Positions 4,218-38,780 of a DNA stretch of 38,780 bases are shown in pieces; positions within the stretch are counted from its first letter, which is position 1; every line of letters starts with the position of its first letter. The notes beneath the pieces were generated by a model. The model ran no database searches. It saw only the letters and a list, made by a program, of their open reading frames with translations, and was not told the origin of the DNA. The translations under genes and the position numbers were made by a program. Origin of the DNA: a virus (taxonomy: Duplodnaviria > Caudoviricetes). Location: the IMG/VR virus record IMGVR_UViG_3300027193_000001, positions 1-38,780 of that record; one strand, written 5' to 3'.

Positions 4218-4317
4218 GTTTCTTCTTAATAATGGTAATCAAAGAATCTCGCATTACGGACTTCCTAGCGTCTTTCAGTCTCTGAGGTTCGTTTTGCGGT
4301 GGAGAGGGAAGTGACAT
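4108..4317 (-). CDS. Small Pro/Lys-rich protein (69 aa)
   Basis: ATG 9 nt after the fibre gene stop with the genome-typical TTTATG context; overlaps the next ORF by 110 nt. Confidence 0.5.
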   Translation of the reverse strand: MSLPSPPQNEPQRLKDARKSVMRDSLITIIKKKRAEPSEPPKKSPPKKSLLNSKVTDPDTAYQIWQYPR

Positions 4318-4326
4318 AAATATTTA

Positions 4327-4995
4327 TTAAATTCCTGCGTAAATGAATGTATTTCCAAGAAATATTGTTGGCTGCATGTTGTTGTGTGAACCTCCTCCGC
4401 CTGTTGATGATGTTATTGCATGTAGGGCTGTACTCGTTGATGACTGCACATTAATATTCCCAGCCACCGTGGTTGAGCTAGACCCGAATGATAAGTTGTT
4501 ATTTATGCTAGCAGTACCATCGATGTGATTATGCAATGGCATTTGGGCGACGGTTAAAGTGTGAGTTTCAGCCCCAACAACCTGCCCAGGAGTTCGATTT
4601 GATAAACCCGAACCTTGACCAATTGAACCATTAACCCTGCCTAGACAATTTGGCAGTAAGAATGTTGTTGAGCCGTCGCCTGCACCAAATGCAGTGCCAA
4701 TTATTGCAAAAAGTGCGGAATAAACCGTTCGTGAAACTGCCTGTCCATTACATATAAGCCACCTGCCGTGATTCGCACTTTGAAGCGAGTGTTTGAAATC
4801 GCCTGTATAACATGGGGTTCCGCCCGCTGAATCGAGAGCCAACACACTAGGTTTGTTGGCTAGGTCGTTGTAACTCCCTGACAAACCCACAGCTGAAATC
4901 GTAGGTTTGTTGGCTAGGTCGTTGTAACTCCCTGAGGTAGCAACCTCCGCAAGGGAAGCTAAGAAAGTCCTAAGGTATTGGGATATATTTGACAT
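4327..4995 (-). CDS. Short tail fibre with tail-collar domain (fibre B)
   Basis: WLICNGQAVSRTVYSALFAIIGT.FG.GDGSTTF.LP collar motif; GAETHTLT..QMP.HNH...HNNMQP tip. Confidence 0.9.
   Translation of the reverse strand: MSNISQYLRTFLASLAEVATSGSYNDLANKPTISAVGLSGSYNDLANKPSVLALDSAGGTPCYTGDFKHSLQSANHGRWLICNGQAVSRTVYSALFAIIGTAFGAGDGSTTFLLPNCLGRVNGSIGQGSGLSNRTPGQVVGAETHTLTVAQMPLHNHIDGTASINNNLSFGSSSTTVAGNINVQSSTSTALHAITSSTGGGGSHNNMQPTIFLGNTFIYAGI
4848..4935. repeat. 34-bp direct repeat x2 (4848-4881, 4902-4935) encoding SGSYNDLANKP fibre shaft repeats
   Basis: TAGGTTTGTTGGCTAGGTCGTTGTAACTCCCTGA occurs twice with a 54-nt period. Confidence 0.95.
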
Positions 4996-5011
4996 ATTAT
5001 TATATTTTAGA

Positions 5012-5638
5012 TTACCAGTATTTTACATCGAGAATGTCTATGTTTAGCAAGCTTTCGAGGTCAGCACAATTCTTAACTAAATCGCACAATACATTTGACT
5101 TAGCTCGCACACCGTTAATGTAAGAAAGGCAGGTGTTATTATCCCGCAGCACACGTTTTTCGGTGGCTGAAAGTGTGTATTTAGTACCCGATTTAAACGC
5201 AACTAATTCGCTATTGATTATAGCCACAGCTTCCCCGAGCATGTTATTTTGAGCGTGCTGAGGATATTTAGTCAGTATCAACTCAGAAGCTTTCGCATTA
5301 ATCTTGCTTACCTTTATCGCCAACACCTCAGGCAGGGTTAACCCCTCGTATATGTCACGGGGCTTAACAGTCCTTAAATCCGACAATTTTGTCTCATATT
5401 GCGGGACATTTTTGGTTAGACTAACCAATTGTTCCCGTAACTTATCGGGGATACCGGATATTGTCTCATCAGAAAATTTAATGCACTGCCGCTGGGTCTT
5501 ATCCGAGCAACATTCAATCTCTTCGTAATCAGCAGGGAAAGACACCGCTGGCTCCAATATAGCGAACTCCGCTAAGGAGCAGTAGAAGTTTCCAATTCGC
5601 ACGCTGTCATTTTGGCGGTTCATGAATATTTTTAGCAT
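5012..5638 (-). CDS. Putative tail fibre assembly chaperone (DUF4376-like C-terminus)
   Basis: Lies between two fibre genes; helical C-terminus (KVSKINAKA..I...YP...Q.N...VRAKSN.L...V....D...L..I...W). Confidence 0.6.
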   Translation of the reverse strand: MLKIFMNRQNDSVRIGNFYCSLAEFAILEPAVSFPADYEEIECCSDKTQRQCIKFSDETISGIPDKLREQLVSLTKNVPQYETKLSDLRTVKPRDIYEGLTLPEVLAIKVSKINAKASELILTKYPQHAQNNMLGEAVAIINSELVAFKSGTKYTLSATEKRVLRDNNTCLSYINGVRAKSNVLCDLVKNCADLESLLNIDILDVKYW

Positions 5639-26926: not shown

Positions 26927-27304
26927 ATGAATTACATCCAAACAAACATTTCCACTATTTTGTGGGAAGCATTAAAAGACGGCGACCTTAACCCTTCCGA
27001 CGATTGCGTTCTTAACAGCCAGCATTATCACGCCTTGCTTTTTGTGGGTGCAACGAAAGGGCAAATTTACGCAAGTATATTCCCAAAAGCTTTTAACTTG
27101 GAAATGGTTGCGTTAGTTGAGAAGTCCCTTGGTTTTCTTAACACCATACGCAACACTTCAGGGGCGGATTTTGGAGCACAAATGGGTTTTCCCTTGGCAG
27201 AAAAAGCCATGATGAAAATCATAAATATGTTTCCCACCATTGAAATTGGTGCGGTAAATTCACCGTTTGAGGCGAACGAACTACCAATGCTTTATTCTTT
27301 TTAA
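26927..27304 (+). CDS. Hypothetical early protein
   Basis: First ORF after the tandem promoters. Confidence 0.75.
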   Translation: MNYIQTNISTILWEALKDGDLNPSDDCVLNSQHYHALLFVGATKGQIYASIFPKAFNLEMVALVEKSLGFLNTIRNTSGADFGAQMGFPLAEKAMMKIINMFPTIEIGAVNSPFEANELPMLYSF

Positions 27305-27319
27305 TTAATATCAAATTTT

Positions 27320-27661
27320 ATGAACGAATATTTAATAAAATCAATCACCGAGGTTTTTGAAGACAATTTTGAAAAGGGCGAAGGTAAAGGTGTGAATGTA
27401 TATGGCGTTGAAGGTAAAATAGAAGCAGAGTCGCCACGGGACGCAGTCTTAAAATTCATTGCTAATAATCTTTATTTCACCGATGGCACGCTTGAAGAAG
27501 ACATTGAAGAGGGAAGCCAAAAAGTTTATTGCACCTTGGTTGATAACGAAAACAATGAACCTAATAATCCGCAAATTGAAGCGTGGAAGCGTGGGGAAAT
27601 TGTTTTATACTCTTCATATACACGATTCACAGTTTCCCAGTTAATAAAACAAACTTTTTAA
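27320..27661 (+). CDS. Hypothetical acidic early protein
   Basis: Flanked by identical 26-bp linkers. Confidence 0.8.
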   Translation: MNEYLIKSITEVFEDNFEKGEGKGVNVYGVEGKIEAESPRDAVLKFIANNLYFTDGTLEEDIEEGSQKVYCTLVDNENNEPNNPQIEAWKRGEIVLYSSYTRFTVSQLIKQTF

Positions 27662-27676
27662 TTAATATCAAATTTT

Positions 27677-28654
27677 ATGGCAAAAATAGTCTACAGTTCA
27701 CCACGGGAAATTTGCCACCTTTGGGCGAACCAATCACAAAACAAGGCAAGAACTTCCAAAAGAACCGTTTCGTTTTTCGGAAACGAACTATATTCTTACA
27801 GCACGAAAATCGCGGAATTGTTCCCAGAACACAATTTTGCAATGGTTACAACGCGAAATTATTCAATAACAAGGGCAAAGCACCAAAGATATTTAAGGAA
27901 CGCGTTGCCTAGTCATTACCGCATTATTGAGGTTTATGATAGTTTCCGACCTGAAAACATTATTGACCATTTTAAAGCCAACTTAGAAACTCAAATTGCG
28001 AAGCTTAAAAACGCAAGAACGCCCGCAAAATATTTGGTTGAAATTGAAAAGCAACGCCGAAACGCGGAATTGTATTTGCAGAACTTTAGTGAAATATACA
28101 AAGGAGGTTTCACGCGAGCAGGCGAAGAGCGTTTTTACCAGCAATTAACTGAATTAATAGAAGCACAGTCAAAGTTTGCGGACACCGCGGATTCAAAAGC
28201 CCTTGCCAAAGCATATACTCAAGACAAAGAAGCGAAAGAAAAAGAAAAGCGGGAGCAAATACGCGAAGAGTACAACGCCCGAGTAAAAGCTTGGAAAAAC
28301 CACGAGCGAGATAGCGAAGGCAAACTAATAACAGTCCCGCAGTCTCAAATTCAAATAATGTGCGGGGAAACCGATTTTGCGAGATTATCCAAAGACGGCA
28401 AAGAATTCGAAAGCCACCGAGGTGCAAGAATACCAAAAAACGCAGGCTTGGCACTTTTTCGCATTATAACGGCTTTTATAACGGAAGGTAAAGAAGTGGA
28501 GTTGCCCATAACAATTGGTTCTTATACCCTCAACAATATATACGCGGAAGGGAATTGCGTTATTGGTTGCCACCGATTTTCATACGAAGAACTGAAAAGC
28601 GTTTATGAAACAGTCGCGGATAAACAAGATAACGAAACATTAACAATTAATTAA
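27677..28654 (+). CDS. Conserved hypothetical early protein
   Basis: H.WANQ, YSYSTKIA, YS.T..KHQ and C-terminal IGCH motifs; function unknown. Confidence 0.85.
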   Translation: MAKIVYSSPREICHLWANQSQNKARTSKRTVSFFGNELYSYSTKIAELFPEHNFAMVTTRNYSITRAKHQRYLRNALPSHYRIIEVYDSFRPENIIDHFKANLETQIAKLKNARTPAKYLVEIEKQRRNAELYLQNFSEIYKGGFTRAGEERFYQQLTELIEAQSKFADTADSKALAKAYTQDKEAKEKEKREQIREEYNARVKAWKNHERDSEGKLITVPQSQIQIMCGETDFARLSKDGKEFESHRGARIPKNAGLALFRIITAFITEGKEVELPITIGSYTLNNIYAEGNCVIGCHRFSYEELKSVYETVADKQDNETLTIN

Positions 28655-28661
28655 ACATTTT

Positions 28662-28943
28662 ATGAATACGAACATAAAGGTAACGATTCCAGCACCACTA
28701 GAACTATACACAAGCGAAGAGCTTATGCGGGAAATTAAAAGGCGAAGGGATATAGTGATATTGGGAAATTTTTACTCTAAACAGCAAATAACGGATTTAT
28801 GCGGTGCAACACCTGAAGAAGCAGACGCTTTTCTTGATGAGTGCGACCCAGCAGACAATGACGCAGTTCTTGAGAACGCAAATCTTGAATTGCAAGAGCT
28901 TTTTGATACTTGGAAAGAAGAAAGGGAACAAGAATGTGAATAA
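28662..28943 (+). CDS. Hypothetical highly acidic early protein
   Basis: About 23 D/E versus 9 K/R in 93 aa. Confidence 0.8.
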   Translation: MNTNIKVTIPAPLELYTSEELMREIKRRRDIVILGNFYSKQQITDLCGATPEEADAFLDECDPADNDAVLENANLELQELFDTWKEEREQECE

Positions 28944-28975
28944 ACCAAACAAATAATTAATTAATTAAACCTTTT

Positions 28976-29194
28976 ATGAAAAAATATACAGCAGTTTATT
29001 TAAAAGACTTAGGGATTCAAATAGGAGCTTTACGCGATTGGATTGCTTCCGAAGATTACAGACCAGTTATAACAAAGGCGGAAATATTACATTATCAAGA
29101 AATGTTTGGCGAAGAGGAGCATTATGAGCGAGTGGACGCACGAAACCTTGAGCAAATGATGAACATAAACCAAATTGATATTGTAATTTTATGA
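28976..29194 (+). CDS. Hypothetical early protein
   Basis: TTTTATG start context; ATGA overlap with the next gene. Confidence 0.75.
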   Translation: MKKYTAVYLKDLGIQIGALRDWIASEDYRPVITKAEILHYQEMFGEEEHYERVDARNLEQMMNINQIDIVIL

Positions 29195-29676
29195 AAAAAC
29201 AAGATTTCAGATTTCTTCACAAAGTCATGGTTTTTGATAACGGAGGGAAAACCGCGGATAGATACACCGTAATCTTTACGGATGGTTCTTATGTTGCGAG
29301 TAGTGAGAACCCGAGCAGTCCCTATGGCATTTACACGCACGGGGATAGTGGGGGGATTGTGTGCATTAAGTTTCCGCAAGATGATTATGGATTTCAGCAC
29401 TCAATACTTAAGCAGGATATATCCGCGATTAACAGGCTCAACAAACACCTTGGCAAATACAAGACAATAAACGCGATGAAGCGATTGCCCAAACAAGTTT
29501 TGGATTGCATACGCCACGACATTTTAATTGATGAGGTGTGCGAGAGAGTTTCCAACGCGTTTATTCAAGAACCACGACCGAAGCTTACAAAAACCTACTT
29601 GAGCTTAGTGGTGGGGCTTAGCGAGGCGGAAATCGCCATTGCTGAAGCTTACTGCCCATTTATAAACCTACAATAA
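29191..29676 (+). CDS. Conserved hypothetical early protein (DNGGKT.DRYTV family)
   Basis: FDNGGKTADRYTVIF...SENP..P.G motif. Confidence 0.8.
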   Translation: MKKQDFRFLHKVMVFDNGGKTADRYTVIFTDGSYVASSENPSSPYGIYTHGDSGGIVCIKFPQDDYGFQHSILKQDISAINRLNKHLGKYKTINAMKRLPKQVLDCIRHDILIDEVCERVSNAFIQEPRPKLTKTYLSLVVGLSEAEIAIAEAYCPFINLQ

Positions 29677-29696
29677 CGAAATTTAATAAACATTTT

Positions 29697-29990
29697 ATGC
29701 AAACAATTTTTAAAGAAAACAAATACACACAAACAACAACATATTTTGACGGGTGGGGACTGCCTGAAGCCCAACGCAAACTTTTGATTGATTTTGCGGA
29801 ATCAGACGCGGGGGCAAATATATTTTCGGAACATATTTACGATGTCGGCACATTAATAGACATTAATAATGCCATTGAATATGGTTGTGAAGAAGATGAA
29901 ATTCAAGAACAGCCAAAGCTTATAGAAGTTAAAGAAATTCTTGAGCAAGCACAAGCTGAAGGAATTGATAAAATAACATTTTATCGTTAA
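29697..29990 (+). CDS. Hypothetical acidic early protein
   Basis: About 20 D/E versus 8 K/R in 97 aa. Confidence 0.8.
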   Translation: MQTIFKENKYTQTTTYFDGWGLPEAQRKLLIDFAESDAGANIFSEHIYDVGTLIDINNAIEYGCEEDEIQEQPKLIEVKEILEQAQAEGIDKITFYR

Positions 29991-30320: not shown

Positions 30321-30605
30321 ATGAATACTATATTTAGGAAAGAATTGGTTTCGCAAGTTGCAAAAACTATTGGTAAAACCCAAAAGCTAACTGACACAAT
30401 GCTAGACGCGACTTTAGACGCGATAGTCGAAAACTTAAGAAACGGAAATGAAGTGAGAATTTCAGGGTATATTTCTTTTTTAATTAAAGAAAGAGAGGAA
30501 CGGCACGGGCTTACTCCAAAGCAAAAAGTACCGTATGTAAAGCCTGCCCACAAAGCTACCAAAGTTTTGGTAGGGAAAAAACTTAAGGATTGCCATAAGC
30601 AATAG
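30321..30605 (+). CDS. hup: HU/IHF-like DNA-binding protein
   Basis: KELV..VA......K......LDA....I...L..G.EVRI.G...F....R.ER.G..P pattern. Confidence 0.88.
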   Translation: MNTIFRKELVSQVAKTIGKTQKLTDTMLDATLDAIVENLRNGNEVRISGYISFLIKEREERHGLTPKQKVPYVKPAHKATKVLVGKKLKDCHKQ

Positions 30606-30800: not shown

Positions 30801-31007
30801 ATGATAGACCAAAAATTGACAGTGAAACAAGTCGCAGAAATATTTCAAATTTCAGAGCAAATTGTCCAGAAATGGGCTAGAGAAGGGAAGCTTCCGCACT
30901 ATCGAGTGGGCTTTGGAAAATCTGCAGATTATAGATTTGATGAAAAAACATTGATTGAATATTTCAAAGCCCCAAAAACAAAAATGGATTTTGACGACAT
31001 TCATTAA
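30801..31007 (+). CDS. Excisionase/MerR-type winged HTH protein (HTH_17-like)
   Basis: LTVKQVAEIFQIS..IV.KW.REGKLP.YRVG....YRF. Confidence 0.85.
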   Translation: MIDQKLTVKQVAEIFQISEQIVQKWAREGKLPHYRVGFGKSADYRFDEKTLIEYFKAPKTKMDFDDIH

Positions 31008-31029: not shown

Positions 31030-33162
31030 ATGCAAGAAATGATTAAAGCTTTCAAGGAAGCAAATCTCCCATTGGTAAGAACGAAAAACAAAGCTCCGAT
31101 AGTAAGCAATTGGCAGTTATTAGCAAGCGATGTATCTTTGTGGGGGGGAAACTTATTGACGGCAACCGAGGTTGGGTTCGTAATAACTGAAGATATACTT
31201 GTGGTTGATGTAGACCCACGCAACTTTCCGAATGGTAAGGATTCATTAGCAGAGTTGAGCAGAGCATTGAACTTCGATGTGAAAGCCAATGCAGAATTTT
31301 CTACGCATACAGCAAGTGGAGGTTACCACCTATATTATAAGAAAGACCACGCAATAAAGTTTCCAAACACAATAGAAGCCTTTAAAGGGGTTGAGTTTAA
31401 GCAGAAAGGTCAGCAAGTACTTATACCGAATTCGGTTCTTCCCGATGGCAGAAAATACACTTTAATTAAAGGCAATATCAACGGATTAACAAAAATTCCG
31501 GCAGAGTTTTACAAGGTTATTGGGCAGAAAGGGACTTCAAAGGCAGTGCTAACAGGCACCGGATTTTCAGATAACCAAGCGGATATTAATCGCATGCGTC
31601 AACTATTAGCGAATATACCTCCGGCAGTTGAAGGGCAGAATGGCGACATTGCAACTTTTAAAGTGTGTTGCCTAGGCAAAGACTACGGGTTAAGCCCCGA
31701 AGTATTCTTCGATTTATTGACTGAGTGGAATGATAAGTGCGTACCTTCTTGGGATTCAAATGACCTGAAAAAAAAGATGATAAACGCGTACAGTTACAGC
31801 CAAAACAAAGCTGGAAGTCACTCAATTGAAAAATTATTCAATGCAATAGAGAAAGGTTTCGAAGAAAGGACATTAACTTTGGAAGAAACGCAAAAGCAAG
31901 AAGAAGAATTACTTGACTGGGAGAGCGAATTGCAGTTGAATAAAACTGGCGGGGTTAAGACCACACTCAAAAACGCAGTGGCGTATATCAAGAACGATGA
32001 GAGATTAAAAGGCAAACTGGCTTTCAACGAGTTCACAAACGAAATTGAATGGTTACACGCCCCGCAATGGGCGAATAAACCAAGGAAATTCAACTTAGAC
32101 TACGACGGTGTTAAGATAAGGTATCTACTAAATGGGTATAACTTCGACATAAGCAAGTCGTTGATAGACGAAGCTGTGGTCGAAGTATCCTCACACAGAA
32201 GCTTTCACCCCGTCAAAGATTGGCTATCAAAGCTCCCAAAGTGGGACGGGGTCAAAAGAATAGAAAATTTGATAACTGACAATTTCGAAGTTGAGGAGCA
32301 GAACATACAATATTATAAGGAGGTTATAAAAATCTTGATTTGCGGGATATTGAAGCGTGTGTATTATCCGGGAGCGAAATTCGATTTTATGTTTGTGCTA
32401 TCCGGAGAAACTCGTGCGGGTAAATCCACTTTCTTGAAAAACTTAGCCATCAATGACGATTGGTTTTTATCAAGACAGCTTGACGGGTTAGACCCGAAAG
32501 ACTATGTGCCACTTGTGAAAGGTAAAATATTGATTGAGTGGCAAGAGCTAGCACTATTCAGCAAGCATGACATCAACAGTATTAAAGCTTTCATATCTAC
32601 CGAAGTTGACACAGTACGAGAAGCGTATCGCCGAGACGCAATGGATTATAAACGCCAGTTCGTGATATGCGGAACAACGAACAAAGAACAGTTCCTGTTA
32701 GACGAGACGGGGAACGCTAGGTTTTACATAGTCCCAGTGAAACGCAAACTCACCCAAGATGACTATGTCACGGTGGAAGGAGTAGAGTACATCAAGAGCA
32801 TTAAAGAAAACATAGAGCAGATTTACGCTGAGGGGCTAACGCTTTACAAAGAGAGTTCGCTGAAACTCAGCGGGGAGGCGAATAGAATAGTGGAAAGGAT
32901 ACGAGACAACTCGTTTTCTAGGGACGAAATAGAGGAAACGATTGTCCAGTGGCTAGACAATATACCTGAGGACTGCAAAAGTTTTGCTTCCAAAGAAAAA
33001 GTTCAAGTGAATGATATTCTAATTCACTGTTTGAAAGAAACCCCCTCAAAAGCAAGAGGCCTTTCAAACAGAATAGGGAATATTCTTCGCAGGTTAGGGT
33101 ACACAGCGAAAAGCTACCGAATTGATGATAAGGTAAAATACGGATTTGTTAAAAATGTATGA
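31030..33162 (+). CDS. Primase-helicase: N-terminal bifunctional PrimPol, C-terminal VirE/VapE-like helicase
   Basis: VVDVDPRN and HTASGGYHLY (PrimPol); FHPV..W...P.WDG..R, GETRAGKST, GTTN...FL.D.TGN.RF (VirE). Confidence 0.92.
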   Translation: MQEMIKAFKEANLPLVRTKNKAPIVSNWQLLASDVSLWGGNLLTATEVGFVITEDILVVDVDPRNFPNGKDSLAELSRALNFDVKANAEFSTHTASGGYHLYYKKDHAIKFPNTIEAFKGVEFKQKGQQVLIPNSVLPDGRKYTLIKGNINGLTKIPAEFYKVIGQKGTSKAVLTGTGFSDNQADINRMRQLLANIPPAVEGQNGDIATFKVCCLGKDYGLSPEVFFDLLTEWNDKCVPSWDSNDLKKKMINAYSYSQNKAGSHSIEKLFNAIEKGFEERTLTLEETQKQEEELLDWESELQLNKTGGVKTTLKNAVAYIKNDERLKGKLAFNEFTNEIEWLHAPQWANKPRKFNLDYDGVKIRYLLNGYNFDISKSLIDEAVVEVSSHRSFHPVKDWLSKLPKWDGVKRIENLITDNFEVEEQNIQYYKEVIKILICGILKRVYYPGAKFDFMFVLSGETRAGKSTFLKNLAINDDWFLSRQLDGLDPKDYVPLVKGKILIEWQELALFSKHDINSIKAFISTEVDTVREAYRRDAMDYKRQFVICGTTNKEQFLLDETGNARFYIVPVKRKLTQDDYVTVEGVEYIKSIKENIEQIYAEGLTLYKESSLKLSGEANRIVERIRDNSFSRDEIEETIVQWLDNIPEDCKSFASKEKVQVNDILIHCLKETPSKARGLSNRIGNILRRLGYTAKSYRIDDKVKYGFVKNV

Positions 33163-33457: not shown

Positions 33458-34996
33458 ATGGGTAAATTAAGAAGAGTTGGCGATAAATTTTACTTCCTTG
33501 CGGAAACGCCTGAGGAGAAGAACATCGTTAAGCTAAAATGGGACGGAGAGAAACGCGTGTATTACACGGATGATTTCGTTAAAGCTGAGAAATTGAAGCA
33601 GTTTGCAACTACGGATTCATGCACTCACGAGTTCTTCGCATTAATGGAATCCAACAAGGAAGGTTCCTACGGAGAAACACCACTCGAAGGGTTTTATAAA
33701 GCTGAAGGTGTATTTGATTACCAAGCCCGCGGTGTACAAGAACTCATCGATAGAGTTCGGAATTATAAGTGTGCATTGCTTGCTGATGAACAAGGTTTAG
33801 GTAAGACGATTCAAATCGTAAAACTCATGGAATACTTTGGGAAGCCAATTTTAGTGATTTGCCCAGCATCTTTAAAGCTGAACTGGGAAAAAGAGATACG
33901 AGAATGGTATTCGACTCAAGCTAAATACGAGATTCAAGTGATAATGACTTCCAAAGATTGGTTGAACACAAATGCTACCATGGTTATTGTGAACTACGAC
34001 CTCCTAACTAAAGAGCATATACAGTCTCAATTATTGAAAACTAAGTTTGAATTGTGTGTGTGTGATGAAGCTCACTACCTTAAGAATGCCAAGGCAGCAC
34101 GCACAAAAGCAGCTGCTAAGATTATGAAATCTATCCCGATCAATATCGCATTAACGGGAACGCCAGTGCTTAATAAACCCATAGAATTGTATTCGCTTCT
34201 GAAATGCTTGAAAGCTACACATATTTTGAAGCCTTATGATAACCTTAGAGCTTATGCGTATAGGTATTGCAGTGCATACCAAGGTACTTGGGGGTTTGAG
34301 ATGGGGGGTGCGAGCAACCCAGCAGAGCTGAACCAAAGATTGAGGGCTACGATTATGATTCGCAGAGAAAAATCTCAAGTGCTAAGCCAGTTACCTGACA
34401 AGAGTTACCAAATTGTACCTCTTGAAGCTGACAAAGCTTGCCGAGAAATATGTGCTAACCTAAGCAAGCTGGACATTAAACTGCTTGAAGAGAAACCTGA
34501 GCTAGGTTCAGTAGGAGAAATTGCAAAGTTAAGGCACGACTTAGCTATGGCTAAACTCGATGACTGTATCACGCACATAGAGTGCTTGCTCGAAAGTAAA
34601 AACAAGCTAGTGGTATTCGCACACCACAGGGCAGTTATTTCAAAATTGCAAGAATCATTAAAAGACTACGGTTGCGTTGTCTTTGATGGTTCTACTTCTG
34701 CCACAGATAAAAATAAAGCTGTTGAGTCTTTCCAAAAAGATGAAGCTTGCAGAATTTTTATCGGGCAAATGCAATCTGCAGGCGTTGGTATTACGCTAAC
34801 GGCTGCAGATACGGTGGTTTTTGTTGAATCGTCATGGGTACCAGGAGAGGTAGAACAGGCGGTTGATCGTTGCCACCGTATTGGGCAAAAGAATCATGTG
34901 CTTGCCCAATTCTTAACAGTAAGCGGAAGCATAGATGAGATTATGCTTCGAGCTATTGCTAAGAAGAAGAGCGTGATAAACAAAATAATGAAATAA
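33458..34996 (+). CDS. SNF2-family (SMARCAL1-like) helicase
   Basis: LLADEQGLGKT, DEAH, LTGTP, GVGITLT and QAVDRCHRIGQ. Confidence 0.95.
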   Translation: MGKLRRVGDKFYFLAETPEEKNIVKLKWDGEKRVYYTDDFVKAEKLKQFATTDSCTHEFFALMESNKEGSYGETPLEGFYKAEGVFDYQARGVQELIDRVRNYKCALLADEQGLGKTIQIVKLMEYFGKPILVICPASLKLNWEKEIREWYSTQAKYEIQVIMTSKDWLNTNATMVIVNYDLLTKEHIQSQLLKTKFELCVCDEAHYLKNAKAARTKAAAKIMKSIPINIALTGTPVLNKPIELYSLLKCLKATHILKPYDNLRAYAYRYCSAYQGTWGFEMGGASNPAELNQRLRATIMIRREKSQVLSQLPDKSYQIVPLEADKACREICANLSKLDIKLLEEKPELGSVGEIAKLRHDLAMAKLDDCITHIECLLESKNKLVVFAHHRAVISKLQESLKDYGCVVFDGSTSATDKNKAVESFQKDEACRIFIGQMQSAGVGITLTAADTVVFVESSWVPGEVEQAVDRCHRIGQKNHVLAQFLTVSGSIDEIMLRAIAKKKSVINKIMK

Positions 34997-35011: not shown

Positions 35012-35149
35012 ATGAACGAAGAATTTGAATCAATATTAGCAACCTTGAAATCGGAGCTTAAAAGTTCGGATAAACTAGTGTACAACAGCGAAGTTGAGAG
35101 GTGCTTTATTCAGTTAATCGAAGCAATCAAAAACATGGAAACCAAATAA
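35012..35149 (+). CDS. Small helical hypothetical protein (45 aa; not in the ORF track)
   Basis: Fills the gap with ~15-nt spacers on both sides; MNEEFESILATLK...METK. Confidence 0.6.
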   Translation: MNEEFESILATLKSELKSSDKLVYNSEVERCFIQLIEAIKNMETK

Positions 35150-35165
35150 ACTTTTTACGTACAAT

Positions 35166-35582
35166 ATGAAAACACAATATGAACAAATAACGAATGCTTT
35201 GATATCAGTATCAGTAGCTATAAGCAATGAAGCCCCAGTAGGATTTGAGTCTCGTATGGCTCAGCATAAGCTAGAAGAAGCTAGAATGTGGTTTGAGAAG
35301 TGTATGGTAAGAGTAGATACCCAACAAACACTAAATTTTGAAGCTGAAAAGACTCAATTACCAAAGGTAGAAGAAGTACAAACACCTAAGGTAGAAGAAG
35401 CACAAACACCTAAGTTGCCTACCAAGGAAGAGTTGATCTTTGCTGCTAAAAAGTTTGGAGCAGTTCACGGGCCTGATAAATTTATTTCTATTCTGAGGTC
35501 TTTCAACGCTGGTACTGTATCTCAGCTGTTTTCTTTTGGGGAAGAAGTGGTTTTAAAATTTATGGAAGAAATTAAATTATAA
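35166..35582 (+). CDS. Two-domain protein: Acb2/Tad1-like helical hairpin plus the C-terminal domain typical of the gene upstream of DUF2800
   Basis: P.GFESRMAQHKLEEARMW; PKVEE.QT linker repeat; T.EEL...K.FG..G....IL..F.A..VSQL. Confidence 0.6.
   Translation: MKTQYEQITNALISVSVAISNEAPVGFESRMAQHKLEEARMWFEKCMVRVDTQQTLNFEAEKTQLPKVEEVQTPKVEEAQTPKLPTKEELIFAAKKFGAVHGPDKFISILRSFNAGTVSQLFSFGEEVVLKFMEEIKL
35364..35414 (+). repeat. 24-bp tandem repeat (2+ copies) encoding the KVEE[V/A]QTP linker
   Basis: AAGGTAGAAGAAG(T/C)ACAAACACCT x2. Confidence 0.92.
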
Positions 35583-35586
35583 TTGT

Positions 35587-35817
35587 ATGGAAAATGGGAG
35601 AGAGATAACAAGAGTATTGAATTTAGTCACTGACGGTTTGACATCTAATGAAGTCACGGAAACTTTGCGTAGTAACACGCGAAGGCTAACTCGCATAATT
35701 TCTAAAGAATTAGGAGTACCTGAAGAGTGTATAAAAGGGTCTTATGAAACTAGATACAATGTAGTAAGAGGTATGAATAATGTAACAGGTCAATTTAAAT
35801 TTACAATATGCAAGTAG
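35587..35817 (+). CDS. Hypothetical protein
   Basis: Operon-packed ORF. Confidence 0.6.
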   Translation: MENGREITRVLNLVTDGLTSNEVTETLRSNTRRLTRIISKELGVPEECIKGSYETRYNVVRGMNNVTGQFKFTICK

Positions 35818-36971
35818 AAGAAATAAAAGCACACTCACACCTTTCGGCTTCCTCAGCTGAACGATGGTTTAACTGTCCAGGTAGTGTAGCGTTATCAAAG
35901 CAAATGCCACCTCAGCCATCATCATCGTTTGCGGCTGAAGGTACGCTAGCCCATTCATGGTTAGAGTATAAACTCAGAGTATCTCTTTTTGGAAAAGGTG
36001 AAAAGCCTGAAGAAGAGATGTCAGATGACATGGAGGAAGCTGTTGATATAGCATTGGATTATATCATTGATAAGTTTATGTTGGCTGATGAGGATAACAT
36101 ACTTATCGAACATAGATTCGACCTAAGTTACATATTCAAAGGCATGTTTGGGACTGCGGATTTCTGTGGTTTAACCCCTGATGGGAAACTATATGTCATT
36201 GATTATAAACATGGTCGCGGTGTTGTAGTCAACATAGAGGATAATAAGCAACTTCATTACTACGCTGTTGGTGCTGTGAATCATTTTGATGTAAGTGCTA
36301 ATACTGATGTTTGCATGGCTATCATACAACCAAGGGCTATGGGTCAAAACATCAAAGAACAGTGGAAAAAAGCGGGAGAGGTTCACGAATGGACGAACGA
36401 ATTAATCGAAGCTGCTAAGCTTGCAGATAGTGAGAACGCCCCTTTAAAAGAAGGGAGCCATTGCAAATGGTGTCCAGCTTTGCCAAGGTGTCCGTTAGTA
36501 GCGGATAAATTCTTCACTGAGGTGGCTAAGATTGAGGCTAACGAACTCAGCGTTAAGGAGTTTCCTAAACCGGAGTTTCTTACAAAAGAAGAGTTGATTA
36601 ATATAATTGACAAGAAAGAATTAATTGAATCATGGCTAGATTCTTGCTACGGCTACCTGAACCAGGCTGCTAAGAACGGCGAGGAAATACCAGGATACAA
36701 GCTTGTGAAAAAGAAATCATACCGTAAATGGGTAGATGAAGCACAAGTGATAAAAGAATTTGAGTACTTAGGAGAAGCAATTTACGCAGAACCTAAGCTT
36801 AAGTCGCCGGCACAATTGGAGAAGATGAAAGTCATCGACAAAGCTGTGCTAGCTGATCTTATATATACACCAGATTCCGACACAACGTTGGTACCTGATG
36901 TAGATAAAAGGGAAGCGGTCGCGGGCGTTAGCGTCGACCAAATATTTTTTAACACATTAAACAACTTATAA
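35808..36971 (+). CDS. DUF2800 PD-(D/E)XK (Cas4-like) exonuclease
   Basis: HS.LSASSA.RW..CPGS, EGT.AH, FGTAD, IDYKHG.G, QL..Y, IIQPR and HC.WC.A...C. Confidence 0.92.
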   Translation: MQVEEIKAHSHLSASSAERWFNCPGSVALSKQMPPQPSSSFAAEGTLAHSWLEYKLRVSLFGKGEKPEEEMSDDMEEAVDIALDYIIDKFMLADEDNILIEHRFDLSYIFKGMFGTADFCGLTPDGKLYVIDYKHGRGVVVNIEDNKQLHYYAVGAVNHFDVSANTDVCMAIIQPRAMGQNIKEQWKKAGEVHEWTNELIEAAKLADSENAPLKEGSHCKWCPALPRCPLVADKFFTEVAKIEANELSVKEFPKPEFLTKEELINIIDKKELIESWLDSCYGYLNQAAKNGEEIPGYKLVKKKSYRKWVDEAQVIKEFEYLGEAIYAEPKLKSPAQLEKMKVIDKAVLADLIYTPDSDTTLVPDVDKREAVAGVSVDQIFFNTLNNL

Positions 36972-36978
36972 CACATAT

Positions 36979-37539
36979 ATGACAACACAAGTAGTTACAC
37001 CGAAAGGGCAATTTTCATACCCAAGCTTATTCACACCAAAGGTTAATACACTAAATGGCAATAAAGAGTACAGCGTGGATATTTTATTTCCAAAATCTAC
37101 GGATCTAAAAACCATACACGAAGGTATTAATGCGGCTATTGAAAAAAAATTTGGTTCTGATAAAACAAAACATCCGAAGAATCTAAGGTCGCCGATTAGA
37201 GACGGGGACGAAAAAGAAAATAACCCGGAATATGCAGGCAAGTATTACATTACATGCAAATGCAATGCTGAGAAGAACAAACCTCAGGTATTTGATAGAA
37301 GTCGCAAACAGTTAACACATGAATCTGATCTTGCAGGCGGGGACTTTGGTCATGTACTTCTTAATTTCTACGCGTATGAGAAGTCGGGAAACAAAGGAGT
37401 ATCAGCGGGATTAAACGGGGTTATGCTCGTTGAGAAAACATCTGAGCCATTTTCAGGTAGCAAATCAGCATTTGAAGCTTTTGAATCATTAGCTGAGGAT
37501 GTTTCCCTAGAAGAACAAAATGAAGCTATGTTTGGTTAG
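36979..37539 (+). CDS. ssb: DUF2815 / T7 gp2.5-like single-stranded DNA-binding protein
   Basis: SYP.LF.P, YS..IL.PK, PIRDGD, GNKGVSAGLN.V and an acidic C-terminal tail. Confidence 0.92.
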   Translation: MTTQVVTPKGQFSYPSLFTPKVNTLNGNKEYSVDILFPKSTDLKTIHEGINAAIEKKFGSDKTKHPKNLRSPIRDGDEKENNPEYAGKYYITCKCNAEKNKPQVFDRSRKQLTHESDLAGGDFGHVLLNFYAYEKSGNKGVSAGLNGVMLVEKTSEPFSGSKSAFEAFESLAEDVSLEEQNEAMFG

Positions 37540-37767: not shown

Positions 37768-38780
37768 ATGATACACTTAGATTTTGAGACATTTTCAGAA
37801 CAAGATATCGGGTCAGGGGGTGCGTGGAAATATAGCACGCACCCTTCAACTGAAATTCTTTGTATGGCTTTTGCTATAGACGACCAACCTGTGGAATTAT
37901 GGACACCTGATAATGGATATGATTTAGGTAAACTGTTCGCGTTGATATCCGAAGGGGCTTTGATAGAAGCACACAATGCTTTCTTTGAGAGATGTATTTG
38001 GCAGAATGTCGCGGTATCAAAATTAGGATTCCCACAGGTTAATTCTTCGCAATGGAGATGTTCGGCGGCTAGAGTTGCGTCAATCGCGTTGCCTAGGTCT
38101 CTTAAAAACGCAGCCGCAGTATTAGGTTGCATAAACCAAAAGGATACTGAAGGCGGTAGCACTATGCTTAAGTTATGTAAACCTAAATCTGCCACAAAGA
38201 AAGATCCAAGTATAAGATATTCCAAATCAGAGTACCCTGAAATGTATGAAACATTATATGCTTATTGTAAACAAGACGTAGAAACTGAGCGAGAGATTAC
38301 AAAACTTACAAGACCGTTGATAGAATTTGAGCAAGAAGTGTGGTTGCTAGACCAAGAGATAAACGCCCGCGGAGTACCAATTGACAAAGAAGCGGTGGAG
38401 GTTGCTTTTAAAATAGGACTAAATTTCACGCTTACTGCATTAGATCGAGTATCAGCATTAACTGAGGGTGCAGTCGGTAGCTTCCGCCAAGTAGGTGCTT
38501 GTGTGCAGTGGGCGAAAGACCAAGGGTATGAACTAGAATCTTTCGGAAAAGAATATCTAGCAAACAAGATGGCAGATACGAATATGCCCGCAAATGTGCG
38601 TGAATTGATCAACATAAGACAGCAAGCAGCTAAGACAAGCACAGCCAAATATGAAGCTATGCTAGGTTGTATTGGCGAAGATAACCGGATACGAGATAAT
38701 TATATGTATCACGGGGCGTCCACCGGGCGATGGTCGGGGAAGAATGTTCAGTTTCAAAACCTTCCCCGTGGAAAAATTAA
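37768..38780 (+). CDS. polA: Family A DNA polymerase, N-terminal 3'-5' exonuclease part (runs off the end and joins 6-1079)
   Basis: MIHLDFETFS (ExoI), AHNAFFER (ExoII), YCKQDV (ExoIII), DQEIN.RG. Absent from the ORF track because there is no stop in the window. Confidence 0.95.
   Translation, partial: MIHLDFETFSEQDIGSGGAWKYSTHPSTEILCMAFAIDDQPVELWTPDNGYDLGKLFALISEGALIEAHNAFFERCIWQNVAVSKLGFPQVNSSQWRCSAARVASIALPRSLKNAAAVLGCINQKDTEGGSTMLKLCKPKSATKKDPSIRYSKSEYPEMYETLYAYCKQDVETEREITKLTRPLIEFEQEVWLLDQEINARGVPIDKEAVEVAFKIGLNFTLTALDRVSALTEGAVGSFRQVGACVQWAKDQGYELESFGKEYLANKMADTNMPANVRELINIRQQAAKTSTAKYEAMLGCIGEDNRIRDNYMYHGASTGRWSGKNVQFQNLPRGKI

Follow-up and report, generated by a model that had tools for sequence, protein, structure and literature searches.

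The window analysed here is a complete virus record of 38,780 bases with direct terminal repeats, and genes for a capsid, a head-tail connector and a T7-like internal protein identify the virus as a tailed phage. On its plus strand, a gene at 35166..35582 encodes a protein of 138 aa, P0001, predicted to consist of an Acb2/Tad1-type hairpin, a linker and a helical domain of the kind encoded upstream of DUF2800. The gene lies in a replication region, all of it on the plus strand as far as Pfam assigns its genes. A Prim-Pol/VapE primase-helicase (31030..33162) and an SNF2-type helicase (33458..34996) are followed by a 45-aa ORF (35012..35149), the P0001 gene, a 76-aa ORF, a DUF2800 nuclease of the PD-(D/E)XK type (35808..36971), a DUF2815/Gp2.5-like ssDNA-binding protein (SSB; 36979..37539, also matched in PHROG), a 73-aa ORF and a family A DNA polymerase (PolA; 37768..38778, continuing at the window start at 3-1079). 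A duf2800-gp2.5-polA module has been described before (PMC8093625). The initial annotation spoke of a domain normally encoded just upstream of DUF2800; the slot is correct, but the 76-aa ORF separates the two genes. By eye, the 45-aa ORF resembles a second hairpin; we rejected it, as 599-1358 of 2000 shuffles scored equally well with a hairpin HMM. Further upstream, at 26927-29990, a series of small early-type ORFs with matches to phrog_7247 and phrog_4496 precedes an HU-like gene (30321-30605) and an excisionase-like HTH gene (30801-31007).

AlphaFold models of P0001 showed a first helix from residue 2/4 to 21/22, a turn and a second helix from residue 27, with no strands predicted and a pLDDT of 64-82 across the hairpin. 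This agrees with the helical hairpin that had been read from the sequence at about residues 4-49. Together with the profiles, the predicted helices place the domain at aa 3-49 (35172..35312, plus strand), without the F-x-Y-H arm that stand-alone members have at the N-terminus. A disordered stretch follows (aa 50/53-81, with pLDDT below 50 for aa 53-81), so that we define a predicted linker at aa 53-84 (35322..35417, plus strand), and then a confident helical domain at 87-137. As initially noted, the linker carries a tandem repeat, PKVEE.QT, which corresponds to two 24-nt copies that are 83% alike (35355-35402) and, by eye, a partial third. The repeat is absent from all nine full-length relatives described below.

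The C-terminal helical domain (aa 85-138; 35418..35579, plus strand) is phrog_408-like and also matches phrog_18196. Its assignment to the DUF2800-upstream type, proposed from the sequence, is upheld by profile-profile comparison and by the scores of relatives. P0001 alone matched an HMM of this domain weakly, at 2.2 bits; a four-sequence profile gave a probability of 87.7 and a score of 29.6, where 100 column shuffles reached at most 19.6, and four of the ten members of the fusion family score 18-22 bits. A tblastn search of the domain against named phages yielded chance rows only. We surveyed the best 80 DUF2800 loci of 594 matches in an eighth of the viral collection, a large share of them Firmicutes-like by sequence, and found a helical domain gene upstream of DUF2800 in 73. 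Ordinary members of this family are built from a short N-terminal helix, the helical domain and, between them, a low-complexity linker. With the hairpin HMM, the best of 80 ordinary members reached 4.7 bits, and the flanks fetched for the 80 DUF2800 loci contained no hairpin gene. In this sample, the fusion thus appears limited to one lineage. In L063, a stand-alone copy of the helical domain (669-848) sits immediately before the full gene (796-1242), and L069 is arranged likewise.

Among 24,736 Pfam families, aa 1-55 matched only PF24729 (Acb2_Tad1_hairpin), with 14.7 bits and an E-value of 0.035; overall, P0001 scores 12.6-14.7 bits against this family, below its curated cut-off of 27 bits. 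The best PHROG match of the same segment, phrog_1454, represents the same hairpin family, being matched at 7e-27 by a bona fide PF24729 protein, and the single tblastn match among 50,697 phage records (E 8) is likewise a PF24729 protein. From this match we collected 41 PF24729 proteins and, after dropping near-duplicates, built the hairpin HMM from 32 of them; since the query's own match seeded it, the HMM is not fully independent. It aligns P0001 aa 3-49 without gaps at 22.6 bits, a score reached by none of 2000 shuffles, and it ranks P0001 first among 571 window ORFs (24.8 bits, the next 5.6). A profile-to-profile match had a probability of 90.4 and a score of 31.8 over 39 columns. By sequence, and with the linking relatives described below, the homology to PF24729 is beyond chance over both helices. 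A six-frame PF24729 search of the phage's own genome gave no match at E <= 0.001.

Structure-based and large-scale searches were less specific. In the PDB, no sponge was retrieved by sequence with either aa 1-55 or alignment A1. Foldseek placed CbTad1 at ranks 1-3 for the first model, but with E-values of about 4, and for the second model no Tad1 was among the matches listed; a BFVD hairpin protein superposed with an rmsd of 2.4 over 51 at rank 47. VIA-align gave unspecific helical hairpins, with Z values of up to 7.1, and no Acb2/Tad1 among the 50 matches listed, and ESM Atlas gave no usable feature match for aa 1-55, with a PF24729 cluster only at row 10, under the bar. Together with the score below the Pfam cut-off, such generic hits are what one would expect if the likeness were accidental, with nothing more in P0001 than an unspecific amphipathic hairpin whose KLEEAR.WFEK stretch resembles TPR. 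In the same direction, phmmer with aa 1-55 against 1.84 billion representatives found 11 matches, namely the query itself, one true relative and nine unrelated repeat proteins, eight of them TPR, and a TPR control profile scored higher over its 18 columns than the hairpin did over 39 (35.5 vs 31.8). This TPR set, however, was chosen by the P0001 query itself and spans one helix end only.

Stronger evidence on this point came from the relatives. Single-sequence and profile searches and a cluster look-up yielded nine further full-length proteins, the profile search scoring just the best 7,992 candidates of 75-286 aa; with P0001, they form a fusion family of ten (P0001-P0004 and P0055-P0060). P0055 (31.4 bits), P0057 (31.2 bits) and P0058 (29.7 bits) pass the PF24729 cut-off and carry the canonical RE.SL..TK.EEA.MW motif, and they have the linker motif and the C-terminal domain in common with the closer relatives of P0001. 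The proposed homology to Acb2/Tad1 thus holds most firmly through these three proteins, although in the HMMER comparison suggested initially P0001 itself falls short of the cut-off. Judged from these sequences, an accidental likeness is largely refuted, and we give it almost no credence. The same shared parts (hairpin, linker motif, C-terminal domain) bear out that a hairpin is joined to a replication-module protein, and at the sequence level they confirm P0001 as a real fusion of sponge hairpin, linker and DUF2800-upstream domain. Hairpin HMM scores range from 27 down to -1 bits across the family, and P0056 and P0059 have no reportable hairpin domain; still, all ten proteins retain a similar type of N-terminal segment.

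DNA context among the relatives comes from P0057 only, on contig L169, with none for P0002-P0004, P0055, P0056 and P0058-P0060. In L169, the P0057 gene lies between an SNF2 helicase and a small ORF before DUF2800-DUF2815-PolA, the same order as in the window. Primase, helicase, nuclease, SSB and PolA of the two are 55-68% identical (PolA 68%), whereas the fusion proteins share only 29%. L169 has no counterpart of the 45-aa ORF at the same place, and between primase and helicase it encodes a 312-aa hydrophobic, membrane-like ORF (4291-5229) that is absent from the window. When loci were searched with P0001, A1 and A4, neither viral nor genome contigs yielded a relative, and metagenomes gave the same genome only. 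Sixteen other loci found with P0057/A6 were set aside, as their hairpins stand alone or have other fusion partners and lack the C-terminal domain of the fusion family.

The known sponges define which residues to expect in a ligand-binding hairpin. According to PMC10312549, Acb2 binds cyclic trinucleotides via R67 and T74 and dinucleotides via Y11 and K26; cA3 binding is abolished by R67A and weakened by T74A, T4 Acb2, with D61/T68, shows none, and some homologs without one of the Arg/Thr pair still bind dinucleotides. In Tad1, the cA3 residues are given as R88/T95 in CmTad1 and R90/T97 in CbTad1, and the CmTad1 hexamer interface as K96, Q98, E99, M102, W103 and K106 together with R88/T95 (10.1101/2023.11.15.567273). 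For Acb2_43, 3'cADPR contacts are reported at T4-V7, K19 and K55, and in the same study 19 of 84 tested sponges were without a known target (10.1101/2025.08.24.671296). Known sponge pockets are described as positively charged (PMC13712596). We placed the pocket residues on the family motif by PDB alignments, with a sequence numbering offset of one that is inferred; Acb2_43 K19 was mapped with this offset, and PaMx33 Y11/K26 by spacing only.

In this alignment, the cA3-binding Arg is replaced in P0001 by Phe27 (35244..35246, plus strand) and the Thr by His34 (35265..35267, plus strand). Among 105 distinct stand-alone or otherwise fused hairpin sequences, Arg and Thr occur in all 105, a count biased by fetch patterns that included both residues; a helix-1 Arg is found in 104 and the F-x-Y-H arm in 103-104 of them. 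At HMM column 24, this helix-1 Arg is replaced by Thr/His (T9 in P0001), and HMM columns 1-17 are unmatched in P0001, which begins at helix 1 and has neither the arm nor the Tad1 N-terminal beta-sheet domain with its gcADPR pocket. The arm, which contributes to the dinucleotide and gcADPR pockets, was found in none of the ten fusion proteins, and in L169 an in-frame stop lies eight codons upstream of the P0057 start. We rejected an in-frame F-T-Y upstream of the P0001 ATG as a hidden arm, because the open stretch has no start codon and the spacing is six residues short. At the hexamer interface, K35, E37, E38, M41, W42 and K45 (35268..35300, plus strand) correspond to K96, Q98, E99, M102, W103 and K106 of CmTad1, so that six of eight positions are kept or conservatively exchanged and two are replaced. 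Equivalents of K96, E99 and W103 are kept in eight of the ten fusions, and P0056 also has the K and E.

From these residues, we consider it highly improbable that P0001 itself functions as an Acb2/Tad1-type sponge, binding cA3, cGAMP or gcADPR while tethered to the replication module. The family homology is clear, sponge domains are often fused to others and stay active (10.1101/2025.07.12.664507), and K45 equals K55 of Acb2_43 by the inferred numbering. But both cA3 residues are replaced, the arm has no counterpart, the helix-1 Arg/Lys has become Thr/His, the Tad1 beta-sheet domain is missing, and K45 is Gln in the four closest relatives. Loss of pocket residues had been named at the outset as speaking against a sponge, and P0001 displays such a loss, with F27/H34 for Arg/Thr and no arm. 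Of the two alternatives offered by the initial annotation, a tethered sponge is therefore disfavored in P0001, and reuse of the hairpin as an oligomerization module fits better.

The altered positions differ within the family. The Arg/Thr pair reads F/H in five proteins (P0001 and its four closest relatives), R/T in three, R/F in one and I/L in one; the intact pairs belong to P0055, P0057 and P0058, the members above the PF24729 cut-off. For these three of the ten members, a tethered sponge is kept as a candidate reading, for cyclic trinucleotides only. Because the cA3 pocket is formed by the hairpin hexamer alone, they are reasonable candidates for cA3 sponges built on the hairpin alone. Within the F/H group, identity to P0001 is 64-68% in the hairpin, 52-59% in the C-terminal domain and 28-46% in the linker, and F27, S29, Q33, H34 and R40 are invariant in 5/5 proteins, unlike the family consensus, although these proteins are not independent, as P0002 and P0060 form one 90% cluster. 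Since the hairpin is at least as conserved as the C-terminal domain and well above the linker, the altered hairpin is under constraint. This argues against a decaying passenger of a sponge fusion, retained for carrying the start of a needed gene, as does the N-terminal segment retained in 10/10 members. The drop of hairpin scores over the family down to -1 bits, with no reportable domain in two proteins, is in agreement with such decay, which on balance we regard as distinctly unlikely.

Trees were calculated from the last 58 residues only, with ten and then eight outgroup rows (two long rows dropped). The C-terminal domains of all ten fusions form one clade (support 98/99 and 98/96), in which two Arg/Thr members fall outside an eight-member clade (98/98, 99/99) that holds the third. 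In a tree from all residues after the hairpin, the F/H group has a support of 99/97. From the placement of the Arg/Thr members it follows, by parsimony, that Arg/Thr probably is ancestral and that the changes came later and separately; the AU test against a single Arg/Thr clade was borderline on this short alignment (p-AU 0.055). We infer from the sequences that a stand-alone hairpin gene fused once, in an ancestor, with a neighboring DUF2800-upstream gene; this ancestor would have kept the cA3 pocket, which was later altered in separate lineages. In one of 80 loci with stand-alone hairpins (L126, 3983-5462), an intact hairpin gene overlaps the beginning of a DUF2800-like gene that is followed by SSB-like and PolA-like genes, an arrangement that would be a plausible starting point for such a fusion.

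Why, then, is an altered hairpin maintained? We favor, at about even confidence, that P0001 has a captured sponge hairpin reused as an oligomerization module. The hairpin would have taken the place of the usual N-terminal amphipathic helix of the DUF2800-upstream family, and we count the helix-linker-domain layout shared with ordinary members in favor of this. Such a hairpin likely does not bind the known immune signals and likely self-assembles, with an Acb2/Tad1-like trimer of dimers as the predicted hexamer. Assembled hairpins could cluster several C-terminal domains on flexible linkers, and the clustered domains would act on a putative target, the nuclease/SSB/PolA module. The gene position suggests a tether to the replication machinery. 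As R88 and T95 belong to the Tad1 hexamer interface, however, F/H may change or weaken assembly.

The main rival to an assembly module is a re-tooled pocket, in which the F/H hairpin still oligomerizes and binds a small molecule other than cA3, cGAMP or gcADPR, functioning either as a sponge or, on the replication-module protein, as a sensor. An uncharacterized immune signal might be the ligand, or a metal held by three symmetric His34, both proposals sharing the doubtful standing of this reading, which we regard as a tentative possibility. A new pocket would be an equally good explanation of the invariant F27, Q33, H34 and R40 of the F/H group, in which no other part is as conserved as the hairpin. 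Acb2 pockets are known to diversify, e.g., in Acb2_43 (10.1101/2025.08.24.671296), and the divergence of the fusion gene, far above that of its neighbors, resembles that of arms-race genes. Dinucleotide binding by pair-deficient Acb2 homologs and the sponges without a known target likewise make the loss of these residues compatible with binding. On the other hand, aa 1-52 of P0001 hold 6 K+R versus 7 D+E and the central Arg has become Phe, at odds with the positive charge of known pockets; part of the divergence is due to the low-complexity linker; and two further lineages altered the same positions differently, for which relaxation is a better explanation than one new specificity.

Unlikely as well, in our view, yet of interest for the whole family, is a sponge wired into the replication module. 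Its ancestor would have been a minimal cA3 sponge or sensor made of the hairpin only, the hexamer of which showed six module domains, with a pocket that was repeatedly rewritten. If true, alarm nucleotides of the host would be captured at the replication apparatus or sensed by it, and the pocket would have been rewritten since simple loss of the gene is no option, either evading cA3-decoy defenses such as type II Panoptes or catching an undescribed signal. In type II Panoptes, cA3 is described as a decoy, and the system as triggered by Acb2 (PMC13712596). We may speculate that this defense selects for loss of the pocket with retention of the fold.

Returning to the oligomerization module as the preferred reading, P0001 can be set against the systems it resembles. 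With the Acb2 family (PF24729; PaMx33 Acb2, T4 Vs.4, Acb2_43; phrog_1454) it shares two predicted antiparallel helices with a P-x-G turn, the E..MA..KLEEA.MW motif and most of the interface residues; it differs by the missing arm, and with it the dinucleotide/3'cADPR pocket, by Phe/His for Arg/Thr and by the linker to a replication-module domain. The likeness to CbTad1 and CmTad1 covers the C-terminal two-helix part and the interface positions K, E/Q, E, M, W and K, whereas the beta-sheet domain and hence a Tad1-type gcADPR pocket are missing and the R90/T97 equivalents are replaced. DUF2800-upstream genes (phrog_408 and related PHROGs) occupy the same slot and encode the same C-terminal domain after a low-complexity linker, but with an ordinary N-terminal helix where P0001 has a sponge hairpin. 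Sponge-sponge fusions, namely Tad2-Acb4, Tad2-Sequestin and Sequestin-Acb4, are known (10.1101/2025.07.12.664507) and similarly place a sponge-type domain within a longer phage protein; the partner in P0001 stems from a DNA-replication module and not from a known sponge family. In full-text searches, largely of non-subscription papers, we found no description of a hairpin fused to a DUF2800-upstream domain, and the initial annotation knew of none either; a table of 4,204 Acb2 homologs of up to 500 aa in a bioRxiv supplement, outside this search, may list such fusions. PF24729 was named in one preprint, for stand-alone mycobacteriophage ORFs (10.64898/2026.10.05.756390).

An anti-defense sponge fold would thus have moved into a core phage replication gene, and one family naturally comprises a series of forms with intact and with altered pockets. 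With it, the sufficiency of a bare hairpin as a cA3 sponge and a new signal for the Phe/His form become testable. The family also bears on the role of the widespread DUF2800-upstream gene, the exchangeable N-terminal module of which points to oligomerization. As a caution, a PF24729-like match alone does not make a gene an anti-CBASS or anti-Thoeris gene.

Hairpins in other settings were seen along the way. Stand-alone hairpins that lack the F-x-Y-H arm or contain an additional loop are encoded at L170 999-1388, L171 6854-7162 and L176 1564-1755. At L109 3986-4930, a hairpin is fused to a 245-aa C-terminal tail, and at L178 574-1095 an N-terminal domain of about 100 aa stands ahead of the hairpin. 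Gene 38 of the Streptomyces phage KimJongPhill (L001 2432-2836, P0014) and P0015-P0025 combine an intact PF24729 hairpin with a second, C-terminal domain of about 55 aa that has no Pfam match. By the fusion logic that found Sequestin, this domain is a candidate new sponge domain.
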